A stretch of 64,000 bases of DNA from Curvularia clavata. Its lineage: Eukaryota. Below, piece by piece: positions 7,083 through 48,860 of the stretch. How positions within the stretch are numbered: the first letter of the stretch is position 1; the number at the start of each line of letters is the position of its first letter. Under the pieces are notes generated by a model. It worked only from the letters and a program-made list of their open reading frames with translations. It did no database searches and was not told where the DNA came from. The stretch is taken from assembly GCA_023920165.1 (NCBI GenBank), contig CP089279.1, positions 1,922,001-1,986,000 on the forward strand. Reading direction: 5' to 3'. The translations under genes were made by a program, and so were the position numbers.

Positions 7083-10000
7083 TTACCGCCATCCCGTCGT
7101 CCCAGACGTTCGTTTCCCCACGCTGCCCCTCATACATCCGCTGTGGACTACACTGTTGTCTGGAAATACGCGGATCGCACTTCCACCGAACCTCTTATGA
7201 CAGACTGCACAATGCCTGTCCTCGTCAATCACCACCCTTCTGTTGAGCCCACCCGGTATCTTCCTTCCATGTTGGTCTGTCTTGTTGTCAACACCAAGCA
7301 ACATTGCTGCCTCGACCGCCACCTTTTCGACGCCTCGCAGCCGTGAAACAATTCGTTCTTCGTTGAGAAGGGAGTTGGCATTGCGTATCCGACCAAAGAA
7401 GTACGACTCCAGGTCCTTGACGGGCAGTGTTGGCGGTATCAGGTCTAGTGTCGTCGCTGCAGGTAGTCGTGCTCCATGTTTGGAAAGAAGTTCGAGCGCA
7501 GGAGGCCAGTTGGGCTGGTGCGGGGGTGGAGGCGAGAGGTACAGAGACAGGAGGACATGGTAGATGGAGAGCTCCGTGTCTTCAATGGTGCCTTGGATGT
7601 TGGCATTGGGTTGCGGAGATCGGTTTGGTGCAGGAGCCTGTGGCGGTGCTGTGTAGACTTGATTGCAGTATCTAAGACCATGTTAGTCTCTCTAGTGTCA
7701 CAATGCCAACGAGTGTCTTACTCTTCGGCTTTCTTGTAATCCTTGAGCTGGAACACATAGATTGCTAGTGCTTGCTTATGCGAACCCATCTTGCTCAACA
7801 CAATAGCACGTGCTTCGTAGTAGTCCGGGTCTGAATGTGTTGTCAGCCACTGTGCCCAATTCCAATACTCAAGAACACCAATACGTACCGTTGGCTGGGA
7901 GCTGCTGAAACACGCGGTACCGATTGTACTGTGCGTTCTCTTTCTTCAAGAATATCTGCAGTCTCTCTCGCCAATCCGCCTTTTCTTCGTCGTTTGCAAA
8001 ATCCCCACTCTTCAGCCTTTCCAACAGCAGATCAACTAACCGCTGGTGGAAGTCCACATTGAGATCGTTCAGCTCCTCGATGATATGCTCTAGATACCTA
8101 ACCGCGAGCTTCAGATCGATCTTCTGCAGGAACTCGAGTACCCTGTCTCTTGGTAGCGTCTCTGCGTTCTCCGTATCGGCAAGGAAAACCTCCATTCCGA
8201 GATCGGGGTTGACCCGTAGTGGCCACTCGGCGTACTCAAGGATGAGGTCAATGAGCTCTGGGGGCAATGCCTGTAGGTATCCGACCGTTCGCTGCGGTCC
8301 TTGCAGGGCGGGGGAAACCTCCTCGTCCGCCTCATTCTTGCCGAATTTCTCCAGCAACTCTAGCGCCTGTCGATGTAGCTTCTTCCCGTGTAAGAAGTCA
8401 ATCAGATCCGCGTAGCGGCCCGTCTCGTACAGCTTCTCCTGGACCACGTCCGGCTCGCAAAAGTTAGGGAGACGGAAAAGTGAGCCTGCTACACTGGGGT
8501 TTGCAATCATGTATGCGCGGAACAGTGTTGTGTCGACTAGTTGCGCCACTTCGAGCAGCTTGGCCTTCCAGTCTACAGGACCTTGCAGCGAACTCTCTTC
8601 GATAAATATGTGGAAAGGCGGTTTCTCTGCTTCCAACTGGCTGCCACTAGGCGTCGGTAAGGGCTCCTTCAAGTTACCCTCTGTATCAATGTAGCGTTTA
8701 ATCTGCACACGGCATTGCGTGAGGAAGGACTGCAAAGCACGTACAGAGTCTTTGAACTCCTTCTCTGTGACTGCTTTGTCTGCTTGAGTTGGATCGGTTG
8801 TCCTCTTCTTGATGCTCCCCGTCTCTGCTGCTGCACCATCATCCTTCACAGCACTAGTGCGGATAGAGGCAGCGTCCGAGTCGACCTTTTTGTGTCCGCC
8901 CACGCCGAACCGGCCCATCATCGACCGTCCGATTGTTGATGCAGCAGGGACTGCGCTTTCTTCAGACTCCTTCGCTGGTTTCTCCCCATTTGGTTCCTCG
9001 TCTTCCGTGACGCTTCCATCGCCCTTTACGCTCTCCTCGGGCGCCAAGTTCCCAGCAATCGATCTTGGATACAGGGAAATGACGCGTTCAGGAGGTGCTC
9101 TGGCGTCGATGAAGAGCTCCATAGCCTCACGGTACTTTTTCATGTCAAACAAAGCCTGCGCTTTGAGTATCTGAATCTCTCTTATGCGCTCCTCCTTGTC
9201 CAGAAGTAAAGTATCTTCGAGCATGTTGAGGAGACTCAACGCTTCGTCGTAGCGCCCATTAGCGACTAGCTCGTCGATCTGCGTCTCATAACTCTGGGCT
9301 CCCATCCGCCATATGCACCTGTCGCTGGCGACCAGGAAGCCTTTGCCAGCATGGGCGAGGCTAATATTGGGCTGAGGCACATGAAGGAAGCTAGCGTTAG
9401 GCAAGGAGATGAGTTGCAGCAAGCTGAGTGTATCCGGGTTTCTGATTTCCAGACTACCCTTCGAAGGCGGCTGCAGGGTGAGCATGTACGGGTATGAGTA
9501 CGCGATAGTCTCAGGGGCAGATTGCCAGGGTACCTGTCGCTTTTCGAGGGCGTTGCCATCCGTGTCAATAAAGAGACTGTTGACGTCCTTTGCTAGCAGC
9601 ATCTCGCCCTCCTTAAGTCGCGTTGCAAGCGGCTTCGGCACCCAGCTACCCATGCCCATGTATCCCATGCCCGAAGATGAGACTGCACCGAAGCGCGCTC
9701 CGCCCTGACTCCCATTCTCTGCGAGTGCACCTGGCTTGATGATGTCTTGGACCTCCTGCGTCTCAATGTTGACCATGACAAACCCGGGATCCATACCAGC
9801 GACAATCTTAGTGCCAGTCGCCCATGTCAAGCTCTTGACCGAGGCAATGAGCGAGATCTCGACTGCGTCGCCCGTCAATTCCATGTCCTGCCATGTCCAC
9901 AATATGATCTTCCGCTTCACCGCAACAGCCAGATGGCTTACGATGGATGGAATTCCGGTCGACGGATCTTTGACGATATTACTGGCCGCAGCGAACGTGG

Positions 10001-10444
10001 TAGCACCCCGCGTCTTCTCTAGCTTCTCCTGTAGCGCGTACGTCTGGATGTCGTGAATGGAGACAAAGTTGTCCGACAGCGAGACAAGGATGTTGGCTTC
10101 TTTGATAATGGCTAGCTGCTGTATCGGTCGTCGCGAAAACTTCTCTTCTTCGCGGAGGAGGTCTGCGGGCTTGGGTTTGGGTGTGGAAGGTTGCTGTTGG
10201 TCGCCGTTGTGGTCGCCATTTTGCTGTTGCTCGGCTTCGACGTCTTCGGGCTCGTCGTTCACGCGGTATATACGTAAAGAGCCAGTGTTGAGTCCCACGA
10301 GTACACGGTCGCCTGATGTCGTTAGTAAAGAGGGCGAAATGCTGCATGTAGGCGCGGTATACCATAGGCCAGGATCGACTCGATCTTGGACTTGTCGCGC
10401 TGTTTAAGCTCGACGATGGGCCGGGCAGTGAATGCAGAGAGCAT
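7083..10444 (-). CDS. VPS39: HOPS subunit Vam6/Vps39 (AvaB-like): CNH domain, clathrin-like repeat, C-terminal Zn finger
   Basis: Starts MLSAFTARPIVELKQRDKSKIESILAYG. Introns 10313-10362, 7831-7888 and 7672-7721 join the 809-aa ORF to exons ending CAVCHKRFGGSAIRVFPDNSVVHSGC. Includes the VDTTLFRAYM/LFRLPNFC motif. Confidence 0.93.
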
Positions 10445-11016
10445 AGTTGGTATTATTCCGAACGCTGATTCATTGGGTCCCGGTGTTGTCGCTATGCGAC
10501 TGCTGTTGCGTGCTCTAAGAGCTCCTCCATGGGCGATGCCGGCGTGCGCTTGGAGCTCGGCGGTCCATCGTCATGGCCATGGAGCTTTGGCCAGGGTCTG
10601 TTAGCCACGTGCAGCCACATCACTCGAGCATGCTACAAGAGCCAAGCAGCTTAGTTCACTATGTCTGAGAAGATGCCAAAAGAAAAAGAATCTCTGAGAC
10701 CAGATAATTGCATTGATATTCTACCTAATCTACCTAAGGTGCTCTGTCCGATTCGCGGGCATATTTGAGCAAAGAACAGAAGGAGAGTGGGTGCTGCATG
10801 AGCGAGTGTGTATGTGAAATGACTTCAAGCAAAAAGTCTAGAAGTACAGTATGAGGGAGAATATTTGTCATTCTCTATCGATGGTCTTGAATACGTACAT
10901 TCTGAAGCAAGACCAAATCTCCCTCGATTTTCACACCCGCTGACAGGCCACTCGAGTGGGTTCGTAGGGCCATTTGGCACCACCACCTTTTCTAGAACGC
11001 GTAAAAACAAGTCCCG

Positions 11017-12120
11017 GGCGCAAGCGCCTCACAGGATCAACTCAGGCGGCGTTCAAAAGAACGCAAAAACCAACCCTTCATCCAAGGGACGAGGATGCTT
11101 CCATCCGTACACAGGCACAAAAATGTCGACTTTCAACGTCAGCACATCTTCCCTGTCTTCCAACACGGTCCTCTCAGAAAGCGCTGGAAGGAAAGAAGAT
11201 GGGAGGAAAGCACAACGCTTGTTACCAATCAGCACATCATCCTCTCTGCTGCTCCCCCCAGCAACAGCCACAAACAACGAGTGCAAAGCATACAAAAAAA
11301 GTCCAGATGTGGGCCGGTGGGTTGAATGGGAGAGAAAGAGGAGTGGCGAATGAGCGAGCCATATCCAACATATTGCCGGATCGTATCCAGCACACATCGC
11401 TACCCCATTGCGTCCTTGAACTGCAACATCATGTACACCAAGAGGTCACCTGTGCGACACACCAAGCGGGCAAGCCACGGCGAGATGTGTTACGGCGGTG
11501 ATACAGCGTCGAGGTGTAGGAATGGAGAGTAAGGGAAACGGGAAGTAGGAGGGCTGAAAAGAGGATCGGGCGTAAGGGACCTCGGGAACAGACATACTCA
11601 AGGAGATATGCACAAACCTCATCATTTGATGGAAAGGCATCTGCAGACAACACACATGTAGTCCCGGGATACAAGGGGAAATACATGGAAGATTGGATAG
11701 TAGTTGTCTGCGGAGCTTCGCTGTCAAACTTCGCGATGAGGGGATATCAATCCAACGCGCAACCGCAAGAGAGAGCAGTGACGCAAGACAAATAAACACA
11801 AAGAAATACATATGGTCGGGTATATTGATGAAAAAGAACCAAAATGTGAAATCAAAAACACCGACACACGCAAGCGGAGAAGCAAGCTTCGTCAACGCAA
11901 AAAACGTGTGCCCAAACTCCTTCTCCAGAGAGCGTTTCCGCATCATCATGGAGAGGGTGAAAGAAAACTTCAAGCGCAAGGTTCGGTCTGAGCAATTACG
12001 GCTCATCGCAGGTCGGTCAAGTCGATAGTTGTCTAGTATGATGCCCAGCCTTTGAACCGGTTGACGCAGAAGGCAAGCCGAAAGGTCAGGTGGTCAAAGA
12101 CTGGGCTACTGTTGGTCGAC
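11017..12120 (-). other. Highly structured non-coding region (probable PRM1 3' UTR or separate ncRNA) with repeated CUUG-tetraloop hairpins
   Basis: 13-bp stem 12043-12055/12094-12106 (fully paired on the - strand with one G-U), nested stems 11643-11651/11703-11711 and 11655-11660/11682-11687, and five G-CUUG-C motifs. No credible protein. Confidence 0.5.
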
Positions 12121-12131
12121 AAATACGGATC

Positions 12132-14426
12132 TTAGATGAAAGGGTTATGCTGCTGCTTTTCCTGTGGATAGGGTGACGGCGCATATTGGTTTGAAAATGG
12201 AGCGATGCGGTCGTCAGCAGGCGAGGGATCAGCGAGCTGTCCATGGCTACTTGTGCGCAGGTGCCCTGGTCGCTCCGACTCGGTCACTGCACGCGCACCA
12301 ACACGACCGACCTTTTCTGTAGTAGGCTCAACGTGGCTGTCGTGGTCGAACGTTGAGAAAGGCCGGGGTGCGAGGGTATAGGGCGCTGCCTTGTTGACGT
12401 TGTAGTCATTGGGCACGTACTTGGGTGGTGCGGTGGCAAGATAGTCGGCAGCAAGTTTGGACTCATGGTCGAGGGCGGGGTTGACAACATAGGGATTGCG
12501 TCCTGTTTCTGAATCGCCATAACGGAAGAGATGGGTCGACGCATAGATGAGACCACCGATGGCGACAGCAAGCCAGATCAGAACTAGAGCGGTGGAAATG
12601 AGGGCTTCGGTTTGAATGCCACTCATGAGCTTGGCAATCACACGCTCTATTGATTCGGTGACTTCATCTTTTGCTTTGCCGCTAGGGTCAGCAAGAAGTT
12701 CGGAGGCCGAGCCTGAGCCGCCTTCGACGGCAAGAGCACCAAGAGAAAAGGTGTCGTTAGCAACGCCAGGGAACTGGACGTGCGCATGCTCTTGAACCCA
12801 GGTAAGGCCGTTTTGGAAGCTGGCAATCTTCAGCCCAATCAAGCAGTTGAGGACTTCCTTGATTGGGTCGTAGAGAACGGTGCCACCGAACGTATCGTTG
12901 AGCGTGGTGCTCATCTGATCGACGAATGCATTCAGAGTATCGTTGACTGCAGTCGTACTTGTGTTGACCCAGGAAAATATGTCGTCGTTCATCTTGCTAT
13001 CCAAGTTGCCAACGGCGCTGTTGACGCCGTTGGACCATGCCATGGATGCGTTGTTGAGCGAGGTGACAACTTTGCCAGCAAAATCAGCGACTTGGTTCGT
13101 AAGTTCTGGGGTTTTGTCTTCGATGGCCTTGAGCAAAAGGAATTGGCAGAAGCACGCGAAAAGGCCAGCGAGACCCAGAGAAAGCAGAAACAGCATGGGG
13201 ACGGAGGTGGCGTAGGCCCAGGCCCAGCGCATGACAGCTTGTCGTCGAGCTGAGCCAAAGCGCCTGCCGAACCAAAGGCCGATGCCGGAAGAGGTTGGGC
13301 GGGACGCAAGATAGACGACGTCCATGGCCTCGTGGCCCTCAGCGAAGAGGGCGGCACGCTCTTGCATCTTCCGGTAGCGGCGCATCTCCATCCAGGCCAT
13401 GGGGGCGCAAGCAAGGATAGCGGCAACGATGAGCACACCGAGAGCGATCTTCCGTGCATTGTAAGCCAACTCAATAAGATCGTCGAAAAAGTTGTTGATC
13501 GAGTTGCCCTCGGAACAGAAGGTGAGTGCCTCCTTCTGTGGCACGGGAAGAACGGAGCGGTTGAACTCGAATGTGTTCATGCCCTTGATCAACTTCTTGA
13601 CTTCCTCAAAAGGGGTGCGGATGATGTTGTCGGTAAAGTTCTGCACCTCTTGGAAAGTCGGGATGGACTGGTTAAGCTTCTTGAGGCCCTCTGCCATGTC
13701 GGGAGGCAGTTCGAGGCTCTTGAGTTCTTCGATCTGCTTGTCCAGGTTGATTGTCGGCTTGTTGAATCCCGGAATGTTGAAGTTGATCTTGTCCATGATG
13801 GAGTTGATGCCGTCGGAAACGGATTTGACAGCGTCTCCCATGTCGTCGGTGACGGAGTTGATGGTCTCGTTCAGTTTCTTGTTGACAGCTTCGCCGATTT
13901 CGACAGCGGCATGCAGACTGCCACTGACTGCGAGGGTGATGAGGCAGAGATAGGTGCTTGTCATCATGTGAATGACGAAGAGGACAATCTCTTCGACACC
14001 AGTGACGGTCATTTCAAGCATCGTCATGAGGCCACTGACTGCCTTTTCGACCCCGGAGGCCGTCATTTCGTTGAGACCAGCAGACATGTAGTGGGGCATC
14101 GAAGCCATGGAGCTGCCGATCTTCTCGACTTGGGTGCAAGCACTGAGGGCTTCCCGACGTGCGGAAACGAGGCTTGAGTCAGTGCTTGCAATGGCAATGA
14201 GCAGTCGCACAAGGACTAGCAGCAGCAAAATGGTCCAGCGGTTGATCCATATCTGGGAGAGCCTAGCTCGAAGGCCGAGGTATGGTTTGAAGTTTGGTGT
14301 TTGGTTTATTGTAGGTCGTGGTGCATCTTGCGGTGGGTAGTAGTCTCGCATCTCATGGCTATCGCCAGCGGACATTAATGGAGGCACAGATGGGAAGATT
14401 TGCTGTTGGTTCGCGGAGGAAGCCAT
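12132..14426 (-). CDS. PRM1: Plasma membrane fusion protein Prm1
   Basis: 764-aa ORF with the Prm1 signature PYLGLRARLSQIWINRWTILLLLVLVRLL, ACTQVEKIGSSMASMPHY, STYLCL, CLIGLKI, several TM segments and many N-glycosylation sequons. Confidence 0.95.
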   Translation of the reverse strand: MASSANQQQIFPSVPPLMSAGDSHEMRDYYPPQDAPRPTINQTPNFKPYLGLRARLSQIWINRWTILLLLVLVRLLIAIASTDSSLVSARREALSACTQVEKIGSSMASMPHYMSAGLNEMTASGVEKAVSGLMTMLEMTVTGVEEIVLFVIHMMTSTYLCLITLAVSGSLHAAVEIGEAVNKKLNETINSVTDDMGDAVKSVSDGINSIMDKINFNIPGFNKPTINLDKQIEELKSLELPPDMAEGLKKLNQSIPTFQEVQNFTDNIIRTPFEEVKKLIKGMNTFEFNRSVLPVPQKEALTFCSEGNSINNFFDDLIELAYNARKIALGVLIVAAILACAPMAWMEMRRYRKMQERAALFAEGHEAMDVVYLASRPTSSGIGLWFGRRFGSARRQAVMRWAWAYATSVPMLFLLSLGLAGLFACFCQFLLLKAIEDKTPELTNQVADFAGKVVTSLNNASMAWSNGVNSAVGNLDSKMNDDIFSWVNTSTTAVNDTLNAFVDQMSTTLNDTFGGTVLYDPIKEVLNCLIGLKIASFQNGLTWVQEHAHVQFPGVANDTFSLGALAVEGGSGSASELLADPSGKAKDEVTESIERVIAKLMSGIQTEALISTALVLIWLAVAIGGLIYASTHLFRYGDSETGRNPYVVNPALDHESKLAADYLATAPPKYVPNDYNVNKAAPYTLAPRPFSTFDHDSHVEPTTEKVGRVGARAVTESERPGHLRTSSHGQLADPSPADDRIAPFSNQYAPSPYPQEKQQHNPFI

Positions 14427-17400
14427 AGCGAACGGGTATGGCTGCGAAACCTAGGTCTGGTTGGTGTATTAGAATCGGAAAGAAGCTTGTGTGGCTGGTG
14501 GAGTTGAAGTGTCGTGGTGTCAAGGACAAGACAAGAGCACCGTAGCAGATGTAGGCCGGCTAGATCTGTGTGGTATCTACGGCGGCGAGTAGTGGAGTGG
14601 GGATAGAATTAAGAGGAGGTAGAACAATGCAAGACAATAGGAAACAATAGGAAAAAGCCCAACGCTCCGCACAATGCAATAAAGGAAACTGGACGTGAAA
14701 GCAAGACTGGGAGTGAATGCAGGACAGACAGGGAAGCGACGGAGCGAGTGAATATCTACTTGACAACGTACCGCGAGTGAGCGAGGACCATCTGCAGGCC
14801 GCCGACCGGGTACCAATGGTACCGCGAGAAGAGGCCTGCACGACCCGATGGTTTCAGCAGAGCATTCGGGTTGCTGAGGCTCAAGTTAGAAGCGGCGATT
14901 CTGGGGCAAGGTGGTGGCCCGAATAGGCGCCCGCAGAAGTGGAGCAAGCCACTGCCGGCCAGTCGATTGCGAATGTCGTGGCCGGGCTGGCGACGGCTCG
15001 AAACAGGGCGCTAGAACAAAGTGGATTGGCAGCGCCTGTGGGAGTGAGCTGTCGGCGTCTCGAGTGGCTGTCGTGAGTTGTCGTCGCGGGTGTTTGTCGT
15101 CGTTTGCTCCACGGCTTGCGCTCCTGGACCTGCGCACCGTGGCCGAGACCAGCAAGAGACAGGCGGGTCTCGTGACGTGCACGGCGGGGTGCGCAGAGTG
15201 AGGATGGGGTCGAGCGCAAGGGACCACGACCTCTGGACGGCGGTGGTGCACAGAGGAGGTGCTCAAAGAATGCCAGACATGGGCGACGCGGCCGTTTTGT
15301 TCTGATGGCCACATGCCTGCGACGCTGTGGCGCACCGGCGCGCTGCCCTGTTTTCCGCACTCTGTGGTTGGCAACACGTCATAGCACACCACACACATTC
15401 CTTTGCGCCTCTGGCTCTGTCTTTGCCTCTGCACACAGCATGCCATGCTGTTGTTGGTCCCACCCGGCCTCTGCGCAAGCCGAGCAGGCAAAAATAGCTC
15501 GAGCACCCGAGAGCCAGGCGCCTGCGTGACCGGGCGGTCAAGATTGCAGATGTTAGACGATGCTTCTGCGTCCTTTCTACAATCATGCGTGGCTGCGGCG
15601 TAGCGCTCGTGTGGGGAAGCCACGGCCCCGTGCGCGGCCGCCAGTCGCTCCTGCCCAATCAACGCCCTGGCAGGTCTAGAGCCTCAAACACGGCGTTGCT
15701 ATGGTTCCGACCTCATCTCTTGGTCATGTCGTGCTACATCTGGACACGAATGTGCACCCATGGCCATATATTCTAGTCCTGTCCGCTTGTCTGCCAGAGT
15801 CTACGGCCTCTGTTGTCTATCGCGTCTTTGCCATGGCCATGTTTAGCAGGTCCTGTCGTGTCATTGACTAACTACATGCAAAGAATCCTCGCTGCAAAGT
15901 CAAGTCTCGTTCCGTCTTTGCTATACCTGAACACCTCCCTGATACAGAGCCAATCTTATGCTTGGGCTTTGATTTCTGGAGTGTGTAGACAACACTCGCC
16001 GTCTGTTTCCACTGCCCCTTATCTTATCAATACACACACCCAAGTCGTCGCTGCCTTCCAGAGAGGCCTTGTTGGCAGTCACTCGCTGCAGCAGGCACGG
16101 TGCTGTGTCGTGACTGCTCTTTGTGCCATTTCCTCCCAGCAAAACTCACAATGTTTCCTCGTCAGCCTCTTCGTCCCTTCGCCCTAAACCCTGTCATCAA
16201 GACGCATCCTCTCTCCAGTCTCTTATCTTCATCTCATCCTCTCGCCACTCCGGGGCGCTTGCCTGCCCTTTCATTTCCTTTTCTCGATGCCGTAAGGTAA
16301 ACGCAGCCTCTGCGGTTGTACAAACGCCCTCTTCTAGCCTGTTCTGGGGCATCGCGGTGGCGATACCCCCACACGTCATCTTCATCTTCATCACGCACTT
16401 CCAAATACGGAGTAGCGCCCGCAATATCAAGTCCTTTCCGCACGTCGCCTAATATTACTTACACGCCTTCTCCTACGCTGCCTACACTCAACTCCTCTCA
16501 TTCACAACTTCCCCGCATTCCGCCCGCAATCACCTCGTTTTTTTCAGTCACTTTCTGCCTCAAGACGTCTAGAAAAAGCTCATTGTTGCGCCTGCAATTC
16601 TCCCTTTGCCCACGTGCACCGTTGTCGTTGCCGGTTATCGCCCACTAGTCTGACCACTCGTCGATCAGGCGGTCGCGCATCTAGGCCTTGTCGCCGCTAT
16701 TATAGTCTCGTATTGAAGACATACTACTCTGTAACCATACCGAGGGTAGGTATTACTTTGCTTTACGGCGTTGCTTTACAACTTTGCTCTGTGGATCAAA
16801 GCTCCCAAACTCCCAAACCCCTAAACCCCTCAAAAAAACGCTGCCACCAGGCTGCGGTCAAGCTCATTAGAGGAATTGGATTGGTATCAACCTTTTTCTT
16901 CCTTTGTATATCAACGGCATTGGCCCAGTTGTGCAAAAAGGTCTTCTGGTAAGTTCTTCTAGTCTATACTCCAGACCTTTGCCAGCTGATTGCCCAGAAG
17001 CAGCTCATTCTCGAATCACAAGTACTTGACTAGAGTCACTCGTGCATTTGATTGCCTTCTTCCACAACCCGCGTACTCTCCGCCTCCCCAAGGCCTGGAA
17101 TCTCAGGTAGGTGAACAAGATAGCATCGCAGCTTATCAAGACCCTTTCGCCTAGCCGGAGGCGGTGACGAGTCGAGTCGTTGCTTATTGATTGGCTCGGT
17201 AGTTGGTTCAAATCAGGCATCACATGTCCGAGCAGTGCATACACGTCGCTTGCAGCCTGGCAGGCGGTGATACATTGGCTGCGTTTGCAACTCAAGGCTA
17301 CTTAACAAAAGCTGATTACATGTGATAGACAGTTCCATTGTGGATATTGCACAGTCAATATCTCTCACCGCTGAACGATTCCCCGGTACCGGATCGCTAA

Positions 17401-35400: not shown

Positions 35401-38400
35401 CGCCGCAACCAAAGCAGCGCAGCGGCACCACAAGCGGAAGAGATGGATACCGCCAGCTTCTTCGCATCTCTGGACCCCAACCTGCGCGCTGCTGTTCTTA
35501 TGGATACAGATGAGGAAACTCTACGACAGCTTCCGCCAGAGCTCTCTGCGGAAGCTCGAGCAATGGGAGGTGACCGCCGTCTACACCAGTTCAACGAGTT
35601 TGGGTACAGACGTGGCGACCGTCGCAGTCAGCCGGAAGATCCAAACCAGAAGAAGAAGGCCCGTCCCTGTGTGCAGATGCTTGACAAAGCAGGTGTTGCA
35701 ACCCTCCTGCGGCTTATGTTCATTCCTCAACAGGGCAGCGCCAAGGGCAGTCTCAGCTCCATTCTACGTTATGTCTGCGAGAACCGCCAGAACCGTGCAG
35801 AAGTCATTAGCATTTTGCTGTCCATCCTTCAAGATGGTAGCGCTGATGTCAACGCCGTCGAGCGCAGCTTTGCTCAGCTCTCGATAAGAGCCAAGCAGCC
35901 TCAGCAACCTGCGGAGAAGACACCAAAGATCTCTCGCAAAAACGGTGCTCTGTCCATCAATGCGGATGTGTCTCCACTTATGGTGGTTCAGCAATGTCTC
36001 AACACCCTCACTCAATTGACCGAGAAAAACCCTGCTGTATGGTCTTTCTTCTTGACTGAACACGAGACTGGGGTCGGCTTCAAGAACCGCGCCAGTCGCA
36101 AGGGCAAGGCGAAGGAGAGCAAAGCGAACAAGTACCCCGTCAATGCACTACTCACTCTGCTAGATCGTAAGCTCATTGTTGAGAGCTCTTCTATCATGGA
36201 GCAATTGACCACGCTACTCAAGGTCATCACGGCTCCACTGCAAGCTCTCAAGAAGGAAAAGGAGAAGGCTGTTGAAGAGGCGAACAAGACCGCTGAAAGC
36301 TCAGCAGAAGGCCAAAACACTGAGGACCAGCCCACTCAAGCCTCACCTACTGGGCGTGCTCCAGGTCAAGACACTGAAATGATATCTGCACCCGACTCTA
36401 GCACTCAGCAGGCATCTGCTGCTACCGAGGGCAATGCTTCCAAATCTGACGCCTTAAGAGCTGAGGACGACAAGAGCAAGAAGCACAAGTCTTTGACGCC
36501 GCCAGATGTACCAGAGGCCAACCTTCGACTCGTGGCCAAGATACTCGCAGCACGAGAATGCAACAGCAAGGTTTTCCAGGAGACATTGTCTGTCATCAGC
36601 AACCTATCGCCAATCCCGGGAGCAAAGGAGATCTTCGGTCAAGAATTACTTGGAATTGCAAAGGATTTAGCAAGCTCAACACTCCGTGATCTTGCCAGCC
36701 TGACAGTCCAGGTTTCAAAAGCAAGCTCCTCCACTGATGTCCAAGGCATAGCTCTCGCCAAGTTCTCACCCGCAAGCTCCGACCAAACCAAGCTGCTAAG
36801 AGCCTTGACTGCGCTTGATTATCTCTTTGATCCCTCGCGCGATAATAAAGACAAACCCGAAGCTGCAGCAGAGGCGCTAGAGCCAGCCCAAAAAGAAGAC
36901 ATCCTCTTGACGCTGTACGAGGATGCTGCCTTTGCTCCTCTTTGGGAAAAGCTCAGCGAGTGTCTCACTGTCATCCGCCAACGCGGTAACATGCTCAACA
37001 TTGCTACAACTCTGCTGCCTCTCATCGAGTCCCTCATGGTCGTCTGTAAGAACACCACGCTGAAGGATGCACCATTGTCCAAGATGCTTCCCAAGGAATT
37101 TACACTGTCGAGCCCGCCACCCGAGAACAAGATGGAGAATCTGTTCTTCAACTTCACGGAAGAGCATCGCAAGATATTGAACGATCTTGTTCGCCAAAAC
37201 CCTAAGCTGATGAGCGGTACCTTCTCGCTGCTTGTGAAGAACTCCAAGGTCCTAGAATTTGACAATAAGCGCAACTACTTCAACCGGAAGCTTCATTCCC
37301 GTGGTGGCGACCGACAAGCCCATCCACCATTGCAGCTTTCTGTTCGCCGAGACCAAGTCTTCTTGGATTCTTTCAAGTCCCTCTATTTCAAATCAGCTGA
37401 TGAGATGAAGTATGGAAAGCTCAGCATCCGCTTCCATGGCGAAGAAGGTGTCGACGCTGGTGGTGTTACTCGTGAATGGTTCCAGTCAATTTCTCGCCAG
37501 ATGTTCAACCCGGATTACGCTCTCTTCGTGCCTGTCGCATCCGATCGCACAACTTTCCACCCGAACCGACTGAGCTCCATCAACCCCGAACATTTGATGT
37601 TCTTCAAGTTCATCGGCCGCATCATTGGAAAAGCGCTTTACGAGGGCCGTGTCCTGGATTGCCATTTCAGCCGAGCTGTGTACAAGCAAATCATGGGCAA
37701 GCAGGTCAGCCTCAAGGACATGGAGACGCTCGATCTCGAATACTACAAGTCTTTGGAATGGATGATTCACAACGACATCACGGACATTATCACGGAAACC
37801 TTCTCCGTGGAAGTAGAAGCCTTTGGCGAAATGCAGACGGTTGATCTGATCGAGAACGGTCGCAACATTCCGGTGACTGAAGACAACAAACACGAATACG
37901 TTCGCCTTGTCACTGAACATCGCCTCCTTGGTGCTGTTCAAGAACAACTGGAACATTTCCTCAAGGGCTTCCACGACATTGTCCCTGCAGAGCTTGTTTC
38001 TATTTTCAGCGAACAGGAACTCGAGCTTCTCATTTCCGGTCTGCCTGACATCAATGTTGACGACTGGAAGAACAACACCGAATACCACAACTACACGGCT
38101 GCCTCGCCGCAAATTCAATGGTTCTGGCGCGCAGTGCGAACATTCGAGAAGGAAGAGCAGGCCAAGTTGCTTCAGTTTGTCACTGGTACCAGCAAAGTGC
38201 CCCTGAACGGATTCAAGGAACTCGAGGGCATGAATGGATTTTCCAAGTTCAACATCCATCGCGATTATGGCAGCAAGGATCGCCTACCATCCAGTCATAC
38301 TTGCTTTAATCGTAAGTCAACTTCTCCGGTTTTTATTGAATACATGCTAAATAATCTGCAGAGCTGGATCTTCCTGAGTATGAGACATATGAAGATCTCA

Positions 38401-47745: not shown

Positions 47746-48860
47746 ATGGTGCAAACGGTTAAGCTGTTTCTGATTCGCCATGGGGAGACAGTGGACAATG
47801 TTGCCCAAGTCTAGTAAGCATCCTACCACGTCGTCTCTTCAAAGCGTTCAATGCTAACTCTCTCAGTGCCGGCAGAAGAGATTCGTTACTCACCAACCAT
47901 GGCTACCAACAGGCTACCCGCCTGGGCCTATACTTCAAATCTCTCGGACTGACATTCACTCATCTCTTCTCCTCACATCTACGGCGAGCTGTGACCACGG
48001 CTAGCAGGATACGCGAGGCTCAATCGACACCGGTGGCTGATTGCCAGACTGCGAAAGCGGTGCCTGATATCGTGCAGCTGCCGATTTTAATGGAGAAGGA
48101 TTTTGGATCGTTGGAAGGGAAGAAATTTCACGTCCATCATCCCCAGATGAAGCTACCCAGCAAACGCCGGCCACACGAGAACAACCGTAAAGCGGGCTTT
48201 GTGGACGGCGAGTCGAAGGCCGATATGGTGCGTCGGGCCGATGCCTTTCTGGACAAACACCTCATACCTTTGTTTGAAGACTCGTCGAGCGATGATGATT
48301 TTGTTATTGCTATCGTTTCTCACGGCATCTTCCTTTCCACGTTGTGGAAACGCATACTACTGCGTGTTCCACCTCATAATACTGTCCTCTGTACTAGCCT
48401 CGAAGGAACGGTGCGGCAATCGCTGGAACATCTTGGTAGCTGGTCGAATACTGGCTATCTCGAGCTGTACTTCACAAGAGTGGTAGGCGAACACCGCAGC
48501 TCAACCACAGAGACGTGCGTAGTACCTAGTACAGCGCATTCAAAGTCGTTTGTTGAGGTCTCGGCTGCAGATGAAAGTCTGCGTAAGCATGGAATTCTAG
48601 TGTCGGTAGAGGAAACCACGGCACCATTCGATATTAGTGTCCCGCCAGCCTCTACGTCCCACGGGATGCAAGGATGGTCTATGTCTATTCTGAGAGTCAA
48701 CAGCAAGGACCATCTCCAGGGCCTCAAACGCGCGCGCGGTGGACTTGGAAGCTCAAGTCACGACGCATCGCAAATGAGCATTAAGGTGTTCTTTAAACGT
48801 TGCAAAACCGAACGAGAAAGTAAGCCAGAGGAAGTTCTTATCCCTTCGCACCTGCAATGA
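47746..48860 (+). CDS. Histidine phosphatase (phosphoglycerate mutase-like) family protein
   Basis: MVQTVKLFLIRHGETVDN (RHG motif), intron 47814-47866, then LTNHGYQQA, FSSHLRRA, LMEKDFGSLEG and IVSHG. Confidence 0.88.

Follow-up and report, generated by a model that had tools for sequence, protein, structure and literature searches.

What occupies the interval behind the PRM1 gene of the fungus Curvularia clavata, and why does it hold five copies of a single short RNA word? PRM1 encodes a fungal cell-fusion protein; how Prm1 promotes membrane merger, and how fungi confine it to the moment and place of fusion, are unsettled. We analysed 64,000 nt of C. clavata contig CP089279.1 (the window, in whose positions all coordinates are given), where the element under study lies on the minus strand at 11017-12120, between PRM1 and VPS39. 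An initial annotation, made from the letters of the window, had read this element as about 1.1 kb of structured RNA with five G-CUUG-C tetraloops, and proposed either a repeated protein-binding array in a long 3' untranslated region (UTR) or an unannotated non-coding RNA. We found that 11017-12120 is part of the PRM1 mRNA 3' UTR and not ordinary spacer. Judged by comparison with relatives, about 1.1 kb of this UTR (12118-11008) is a chain of conserved blocks with many predicted hairpin arms whose stems carry compensating changes. Four of the predicted arms are capped by a G-C-closed CUUG, and invariant, mostly pyrimidine-rich stretches lie between the arms. We consider it probable that the whole is a conserved folded 3' UTR of PRM1 acting in cis on its own message.

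The element lies within a spliced PRM1 message

The stretch was present in 19 public runs, six of them recorded as RNA, and four of the RNA runs were examined as assembled contigs (X5, X16, X18 and X19; one oligo-dT tick metatranscriptome and three root metatranscriptomes). All four contained a splice joint between 14456 and 14772 whose intron ends read CT..AC on the plus strand, that is GT..AG on the minus strand. The contigs therefore come from spliced minus-strand RNA. A single 4188-nt contig in X16 spans 15248 to 10746, across the joint, the whole coding sequence and the stop codon, and contigs were likewise continuous from the coding sequence past the stop in X5 (to 10721) and X18 (to 10852). 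X19 reaches 10978 in separate pieces, 10978-11779 and 11945-12990, with a gap at 11780-11944. Positions 10010-10611 in all four runs, and most of VPS39, were without RNA-contig cover, which was not counted as evidence. RNA contigs thus extend about 1.39-1.41 kb beyond the PRM1 stop (to 10721-10746), and an alternative in which PRM1 is polyadenylated shortly after its stop, with no transcript here, does not describe the locus.

The 3' end was placed with the help of 72 related loci from metagenome collections, numbered with the prefix L. One of them, L001, is a 4372-nt contig with 88% Prm1 identity that is without the leader intron present in its genomic twin L002; a leader motif stands at -209 in L001 and at -510 in L002. 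L001 ends in 100 untemplated A's where L002 has AGACGACG..., and this poly(A) point corresponds to about 10694 in the window. Taken together, the spliced contigs and the untemplated poly(A) bear out the long 3' UTR that had been proposed, and place the element downstream of the stop codon and ahead of the poly(A) site in a spliced mRNA. Among the related loci, 44 of the 72 are in contigs of at most 5.1 kb with 0.86-2.07 kb after the stop, and three more short contigs end 0.4-0.7 kb past it. The PRM1 3' UTR is unusually long against the median of 184 nt (mean 268 nt) given for Aspergillus fumigatus in PMC12810187.

The gene name PRM1 itself held. Among named proteins, the closest are Pleosporales entries called 'plasma membrane fusion protein prm1', at 93-63% identity (Bipolaris 93%, Exserohilum 89%, Pyrenophora 86%, other Pleosporales genera as low as 63%), and all named relatives at 63% identity or more are Pleosporales. 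The transcript and its surroundings are laid out as follows.

14427..15248, minus strand: 5' UTR, with exon 1 at 14772-15248, an intron at 14457-14771 (GTACGT..CAG) and 30 nt of exon 2
12132..14426, minus strand: PRM1 coding sequence (CDS), a 764-aa open reading frame (ORF) with ATG at 14426 and stop codon at 12134-12132
10694..12131, minus strand: PRM1 3' UTR, ~1.44 kb (~1438 nt), with the poly(A) site inferred near 10694
10444..10693, minus strand: spacer of 250 nt from the inferred PRM1 poly(A) site to the VPS39 ATG

The 3' UTR is conserved beyond neutral sequence

The tail behind the stop codon aligned with that of L006 at 84% over 1439 nt (blastn), against 0.63 identity at four-fold degenerate coding sites. 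With L011, L026 and L034, which have 75-78% Prm1 identity by tblastn, it aligned at ~76% over ~640 nt (blastn), against 0.46-0.55 at four-fold sites. The tail is therefore conserved beyond neutral sequence (76-84% versus 0.46-0.63). At loci with only 55-57% Prm1 identity short cores still align, such as one of 31 nt in L060 at 97%; four-fold sites in more distant loci are 0.38-0.49 identical. Other parts of the locus could be compared in the three closest genomic loci (L002, L024 and L028), where 91-99% of the 3' UTR was alignable. The corresponding share was 17-21% for the 5' UTR intron, 15-36% for sequence upstream of the transcript start and 0-69% for the spacer that follows the poly(A) site.

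When 30 non-redundant tails were aligned with MAFFT, blocks of 0.6-0.94 identity stood out between 12094 and 11015, and conservation faded below ~10990, from 0.5 down to 0.2, towards VPS39. The core motifs are collinear in tails down to ~55% Prm1 identity, and partly so in L058, L061 and L067, and conserved blocks persist down to ~50%. L067 is the most distant locus with a match and its nearest named relatives are non-Pleosporales Dothideomycetes (54-58% identity), so the element probably ranges beyond Pleosporales. By these alignments the conserved blocks are common to Pleosporales and, in part, to other Dothideomycetes.

We also checked whether a protein lies behind this conservation. The 47 six-frame stop-to-stop ORFs of at least 20 aa gave only weak hits against the relatives' tails, in five of the six frames and with none dominant, and amino-acid identity was lower than nucleotide identity. 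Pfam returned no hit in the six ORFs tested from the interval. The absence of frame-specific conservation and of a Pfam hit, together with a 1-nt indel at 11293, led us to reject a protein-coding gene or small ORF. That indel is an insertion polymorphism in a T-run, found in one of the four RNA runs. Nine single-nucleotide polymorphisms (SNPs) occur across the UTR among these runs, none within a CUUG motif, and the UTR is about as rich in SNPs as the CDS (9 in ~1.4 kb versus 18 in ~2.3 kb).

Compensatory changes support a folded sense-strand RNA

Pairing across the whole UTR was assessed on 29 sequences aligned with MAFFT, with an RNAalifold consensus whose pair counts were compared with 500 shuffles and with slid partners. 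The consensus holds 192 pairs in 38 helices. Paired cells made up 88.4% of the total, compared with 83.7±0.2 in shuffles and 37-46% with slid partners. Both sides changed in 70 pairs (50.5±3.8 in shuffles; 35-47 slid), 285 cells were compensatory (115.5±10.5; 76-117 slid) and the covariation score was 0.221 (0.149; 0.07-0.10 slid). On each of five measures the observed value was reached by none of the 500 shuffles. Secondary structure is thus supported by compensatory changes, in a test of which neither the alignment nor the structure is independent.

The RNA had also been expected to fold better than shuffles as a single sequence. It does so, only modestly on average, and it is the comparative evidence that is strong. 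The best single-sequence window was 12000-12149 (z -4.2), just after the PRM1 stop.

The five GCUUGC hexamers of the minus strand sit exactly where the initial annotation had placed them.

11028-11017, minus strand: motif 1, GGCG-CUUG-CGCC
11476-11469, minus strand: motif 2, GG-CUUG-CC
11876-11869, minus strand: motif 3, CG-CUUG-CG
11890-11879, minus strand: motif 4, GAAG-CUUG-CUUC
12079-12072, minus strand: motif 5, GG-CUUG-CC

In order from the stop codon, the conserved chain divides into the following predicted domains and blocks.

12031..12118, minus strand: domain I, a long hairpin from ~14 nt after the stop, apex GG-CUUG-CC (motif 5)
11915..12022, minus strand: block II, with near-invariant GCCGUAAUUGCUCAG, UUGAAGUU and GAUGAUGCGA..ACGCUCUCUG
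11858..11913, minus strand: domain III, a nested hairpin with outer stem CACACG/CGUGUG, middle stem GCG/CGC and apex GAAG-CUUG-CUUC (motif 4)
11725..11845, minus strand: block IV, with conserved AAUACCC, AUGUA, UUUAUUUG and GCUCU..UUG; small helices only
11643..11711, minus strand: long hairpin of variable sequence, GCAGACAAC / GUUGUCUGC; the least conserved part of the UTR
11525..11625, minus strand: block V core, with AUCUCCUUGAGUAUGUCUGUUCCCGAGGUCCCUUACGCCCGAUC and UUUCCCUU; 0.92 identity at 11594-11575
11455..11492, minus strand: motif-2 hairpin, with invariant UGGCUUGCCCG and CUUG loop at 11474-11471; tip of a long multi-helix arm
11175..11430, minus strand: block VI, with CAAGGACGCAA, GAACCGGCAAUAUG..GGAUAUG, CUCGCUCAUUCGCC, UGCUGAUUGGUAACAAGCGUU and GCUUUCCUCC
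11008..11112, minus strand: domain VII, three hairpins, H2, H3 and H4 (RNAalifold on 14 sequences)
11096-11073, minus strand: H2, AUCCUCGUCC/GGAUGAAGGGU, which covaries
11064-11049, minus strand: H3, GCGUUC/GAACGC
within 11008..11112, minus strand: H4, UCCUG/CGGGA around GGCG-CUUG-CGCC (motif 1, 11028-11017)

Domain I has a variable outer helix and a conserved internal loop, CUGACCUUU / UUCUGNGUC. Its z-score was -3.2, and the same architecture appeared in single-sequence folds of the window, L011, L041 and L044. Duplexes between cognate arms averaged -22.9 kcal/mol, compared with -13.3 kcal/mol for non-cognate arms, and cognate pairing was best in 14 of 25 cases and ranked second or better in 23. 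A covariance model of this domain (R1, built from seven close sequences) found one sense-strand copy in 28 of 47 sources. In the resulting alignment 90.1% of cells were paired, compared with 76.8% in shuffles and 20-45% with slid partners, and 11 of 16 pairs were compensatory, changing on both sides. The stem of motif 5 reads GG/CC, GGG/CCC, GAA/UUC or CG/CG among relatives.

At the other end of the chain, the model of domain VII (R2, in which the inner GGCG/CGCC stem was added by hand to the RNAalifold helices) gave 33 matches: the window's own, 31 in the loci and one probable noise match. This last, a weak match at 48637-48747 on the plus strand (E 0.38), was discarded. R2 reaches L061 and L067, at 51% and 48% Prm1 identity. 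Paired cells amounted to 94.3%, compared with 85.1% in shuffles and 26-48% slid; 16 of 24 pairs were compensatory, and 111 of 724 cells were G·U. All covariance-model matches in the loci were on the sense strand. The G·U pairs of domain VII cannot form on the other strand, which indicates that the sense-strand RNA is what has been selected. Within domain VII, a previously noted hairpin at 11050-11063 was upheld, as GCGUUC-UUUU-GAACGC at 11064-11049 covaries. Another, at 11093-11106, is not kept in relatives and had to be given up; the covarying H2 uses the same bases.

Between these ends, the CACACG/CGUGUG stem (11910-11865) noted earlier as a larger stem around some of the motifs is the outer stem of domain III and recurs in relatives. 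The apex of this domain takes the forms GGAGC-CAC-GCUCC, GAAC-UUCG-GUUC and GAAGCU-UACGCG-AGCUUC in relatives, and in the whole-UTR test 7 of the 10 pairs of helix 7, in this domain, changed on both sides. The hairpin at 11643-11711 was likewise confirmed: its z-score was -2.6, 9 of the 29 sequences folded had z < -2, and near relatives keep a hairpin with compensating stem changes. In the motif-2 hairpin (helix 22) all 29 sequences have the same two closing G-C pairs, and the lower stem covaries (GC:18 CG:6; CG:22 GC:3; CG:24 UA:2); helices of the arm that carries it also show compensatory pair types.

The blocks are of another kind. Block II is 0.83/0.71 identical to the window at 12014-11975, and its helices are predicted with most pairs invariant. 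For the block V core RNAalifold gave 0 pairs in a local window; longer-range pairs to 11382-11370 are predicted, yet these are invariant. Block VI reaches 0.94 identity at 11234-11215, and its long arm, 11352-11312 with 11269-11226, carries compensatory types. Folded locally with RNAalifold, the block V core and block VI yielded 0-5 pairs and none with compensation, and we claim no local structure for them. The word AAUACCC in block IV (11815-11825, minus strand) is present in most relatives.

Four of the five CUUG motifs cap hairpins

The initial annotation put the expected count of the hexamer at about 0.3 for uniform composition, and this arithmetic is right. On the minus strand of 11017-12120, dinucleotide shuffles had a mean of 0.64 GCTTGC and none of 5000 reached five; the plus strand of the same interval has no GCUUGC. 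When any 1104-nt window on either strand was allowed, five hexamers were reached in 19 of 300 whole-window shuffles, which makes the count borderline when taken by itself. Across the whole window GCTTGC is not in excess (62 on both strands versus 53.9±8.7 in shuffles). Elsewhere in it, at 36670-36777 on the minus strand, three GCTTGC lie exactly 51 nt apart, suggesting a tandem repeat.

Since the count is borderline, the weight of the hexamer evidence lies with the relatives. The 30 non-redundant tails hold 68 GCTTGC where 17.9 are expected, in sequences that are related and hence not independent. Of 29 relatives, 27 retain the hexamer at motif 2 and 10 at motif 4; at motif 5 it is present in 16 of the 28 model hits, counting the window. 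At motif 1, GGCGCTTGCGCC is retained in the window and 11 of 33 hits, and in relatives the site can also read GC-UUCG-GC, GGC-UUUU-GCC, GGC-UUUC-GCC or GC-UUAG-GC. At motif 3 the hexamer is kept in none of 29 relatives; its bases belong to the middle and outer stems of domain III, where they make up the 3' strands, and form no hairpin. The earlier claim of five tetraloops thus stands for motifs 1, 2, 4 and 5, which cap covarying hairpins, and falls for motif 3.

G(CUUG)C and C(UUCG)G are extra-stable tetraloops. The PRM1 hairpins resemble this class in that four have a G-C-closed CUUG for which relatives swap in a C-G-closed UUCG; they differ from a family with one function in that such loops are a general building block of folded RNAs. 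As the loops are replaced at three of the four real sites, a stable cap rather than a specific read-out sequence would seem to be selected there. The invariance of motif 2, in turn, suggests sequence-specific recognition at that site.

Probable role of the folded UTR and alternative explanations

The most likely function of the element would be post-transcriptional control of PRM1 in cis. The folded UTR may serve as a cis platform for RNA-binding proteins that set the fate of the PRM1 message through stability, translation or placement at the cell-fusion site. A further role could follow from the layout. Long 3' UTRs provoke nonsense-mediated decay (NMD) in fungi, and in PRM1 domain I follows immediately on the stop codon of a very long one; shielding from NMD is therefore plausible, and domain I and the overall compaction of the RNA may let the long UTR escape this decay. 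A 1.1-kb folded RNA kept across a fungal order, and partly beyond it, points to a layer of control on the PRM1 message, and its hairpins and invariant boxes offer precise targets for mutation.

Several points weigh against a conserved cis-acting fold. Assembled contigs give no information on strand, ends or level and may fuse transcripts that overlap, and the downstream UTR piece of X19 has a higher contig depth, 13.6 versus 6.3, which leaves some room for a separate RNA species. Fold z-scores are modest on average and similar on both strands, with means of -1.0 (minus) and -1.15 (plus) in the region and -0.36 and -0.19 outside it. The covariance-model alignments of domains I and VII were fitted to their own structures, the whole-UTR structure was derived from the same alignment on which its pairs were then counted, and the sequences share ancestry, so that shuffle counts are not probabilities. 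The model of domain III (R3), made from close relatives, found only close relatives and missed the majority of distant loci (14 matches with default filters, 8 with filters off). R3 is thus too specific, and domain III rests on single-sequence folds and the whole-UTR count. Most of blocks II, IV, V and VI is invariant, local folding gives them few or no covarying pairs, and their conservation could lie in DNA.

Could the conserved 1.1 kb instead be a functional non-coding RNA that acts in trans, with PRM1 a mere host? Such an RNA would be released as a stable fragment of the 3' UTR or made from a start of its own. An element that is multi-domain, deeply conserved and covarying is more like a structural RNA than a typical UTR, and the X19 piece 10978-11779 is a separate contig at a depth of 13.6 compared with 3.8-6.5 for CDS pieces. 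Contig depth, however, cannot rank the parts of a gene. Domain I begins ~14 nt after the stop, too close for a PRM1 terminator and another promoter to fit in between, and in both X16 and L001 one contig holds the CDS together with the whole tail, L001 ending in poly(A). We therefore regard a trans-acting RNA as unlikely. Conservation acting mainly on DNA, through the VPS39 promoter or enhancers or through downstream enhancers of PRM1, with RNA folding incidental, would suit the same-strand order of PRM1 and VPS39 in seven of seven loci, the poly(A) site ~250 nt before the VPS39 ATG and the several blocks that are invariant without covariation. Words like TTCTTTGTG in block IV also resemble what we take to be HMG-box sites. 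The compensatory changes and many G·U pairs nevertheless indicate selection on the sense-strand RNA, conservation fades towards VPS39, and the spacer after the poly(A) site is alignable in only two of eight genomic loci; a DNA-level cause is thus very unlikely.

For the CUUG hairpins themselves, the reading as an array in which one binding site recurs for the same RNA-binding protein draws on their number, four in one UTR with GAGUGGCUUGCUCCAC in 23 of 62 leaders besides, on the retention of CUUG at motif 2 and on the hexamer excess in the tails (68 versus 17.9). It sits poorly with loops that are often replaced at motifs 1, 4 and 5 by UUCG, UUUU, UUUC, CAUG or triloops, with stems and flanks that differ so that the four hairpins stand in four different structural contexts, and with a motif 3 that is not a hairpin. 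An array of this sort is distinctly unlikely. An ordinary spacer with a chance cluster of hexamers, or an unannotated small protein gene, is barely credible: the scan-corrected enrichment is weak (19/300) and two ORFs are present, one of 186 aa (11446-12006, minus strand), the other of 175 aa (10974-11501, plus strand), but the region is transcribed in the PRM1 mRNA, is followed by poly(A), and shows non-neutral conservation and covariation, with no frame-specific conservation and nothing found by Pfam in six ORFs.

Beyond cis control of the host message, a more far-reaching role for both PRM1 UTRs (0.5 kb 5' and 1.1 kb 3') is doubtful. Together they could form a Dothideomycete RNA device that does more than tune its host, either a scaffold or sensor that silences PRM1 mRNA until released by a fusion signal or a cleaved non-coding RNA acting in trans on cell fusion or VPS39.

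Relation to known RNA elements

No Rfam 15 family matched, in keeping with the initial annotation, which had not recognised a known family: the search of 10000-12800 gave only LINC00901 at E 0.93, and nine related transcripts (36.8 kb in all) yielded just PVT1_7 (E 0.84), which fell within a CDS. Telomerase RNA was considered and rejected, as 10600-12131 contains no CCCTAA, TAACCC or TTAGGG, the last of which we assumed to be the telomere repeat unit. A check for a box C/D snoRNA (C box RUGAUGA and D box CUGA joined by a terminal stem), by inspection only, found AUGAUGA conserved in block II and no in-register CUGA beside the UCUCCA/UGGAGA stem.

Long 3' UTRs with several stem-loops are familiar from Drosophila bicoid and oskar, where they are conserved and assemble ribonucleoproteins for localisation and translational control of developmentally timed mRNAs. 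The PRM1 UTR is alike in being a long, multi-stem-loop 3' UTR conserved among related species; the two differ in that bicoid and oskar are animal systems with known binding proteins, and the likeness is one of layout. Fungi place or stabilise mRNAs through protein-bound 3' UTR elements such as ASH1-type zipcode stem-loops and those of endosomal mRNA transport, with Rrm4 and Khd4 (Ustilago) and GUL-1/Ssd1 (Neurospora), and the mRNAs served encode proteins of polar growth, the cell wall or membranes. These too are fungal 3' UTR elements, and the AAUACCC of block IV contains AUACCC, presumably the binding motif of the Ustilago KH protein Khd4, although one shared hexamer is within chance. They differ from the PRM1 UTR in being short motifs or single stem-loops. 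Elements that guard long 3' UTRs from NMD include the Rous sarcoma virus stability element and folding that brings the poly(A) near the stop. Here the likeness is a conserved element directly behind the stop of a very long 3' UTR, and the comparison is by layout alone, since domain I bears no sequence likeness to them.

Closest in kind are structures from comparative screens of fungi. In Gao, Jones & Rivas 2021 (PMC8216456), Pezizomycotina 3' UTR structures are described in mRNAs for thioredoxin, a RING-finger protein and a thioesterase. Like the PRM1 element they are single-copy, supported by covariation, located in 3' UTRs of fungal protein-coding genes and of unknown function; as presented there they are single motifs of 85-170 nt, whereas the PRM1 region is ~1.1 kb with 38 predicted helices. 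Across that screen and Li & Breaker 2017 (PMC5640933), the structures measure 48-170 nt, and PRM1 does not occur in the main text of either. Searches of titles and abstract openings for UTR, mRNA localisation and conserved RNA structure returned no report of a PRM1 UTR element. A conserved structured 3' UTR element is thus a known kind; what appears new, as judged from these comparisons, is the member in PRM1, together with its size and the gene that hosts it. As far as the literature searches reach, it would be by far the largest conserved mRNA structure reported in fungi.

The downstream gene and the PRM1 leader

VPS39 was correctly named as the downstream gene, on the basis of its Pfam Vps39_1 and CNH domains. 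A short intron comes after its ATG (10444), and the order of PRM1 then VPS39 on the same strand was found in all seven genomic loci with enough flank. The layout is unusual in that the PRM1 3' UTR occupies nearly the entire gap to the next gene, which raises the question of whether PRM1 transcription is coupled with the VPS39 promoter. As only ~250 nt separate the poly(A) site from the ATG, control sequences of VPS39 may overlap the PRM1 3' UTR, and PRM1 transcription may interfere with them.

The spliced PRM1 leader is 507 nt long, with 5' ends of RNA contigs at 15246-15248, and is mostly ~0.5 kb in related contigs that reach the 5' end. This 5' UTR is itself conserved, at 66-77% nucleotide identity where long stretches align, in 37 loci reaching as low as 60% Prm1 identity, and no dominant reading frame was found behind its conservation in these loci. 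GAGUGGCUUGCUCCAC is conserved ~207 nt before the PRM1 ATG in the 23 leaders mentioned above, and the word GGCUUGC therefore recurs in both PRM1 UTRs. An Rfam search of 14300-15400, including the leader intron, gave nothing relevant. Within that otherwise unalignable intron lies a conserved island of ~57 nt (14631-14687, minus strand), 88% identical even in L045 at 60% Prm1 identity. Its sequence is UUAUUGCAUUGURCGGAGCGUUGGG and then a series of (C/U)AUUGU words, which resemble what we take to be sites of HMG-box factors and would suit a mating-regulated gene.

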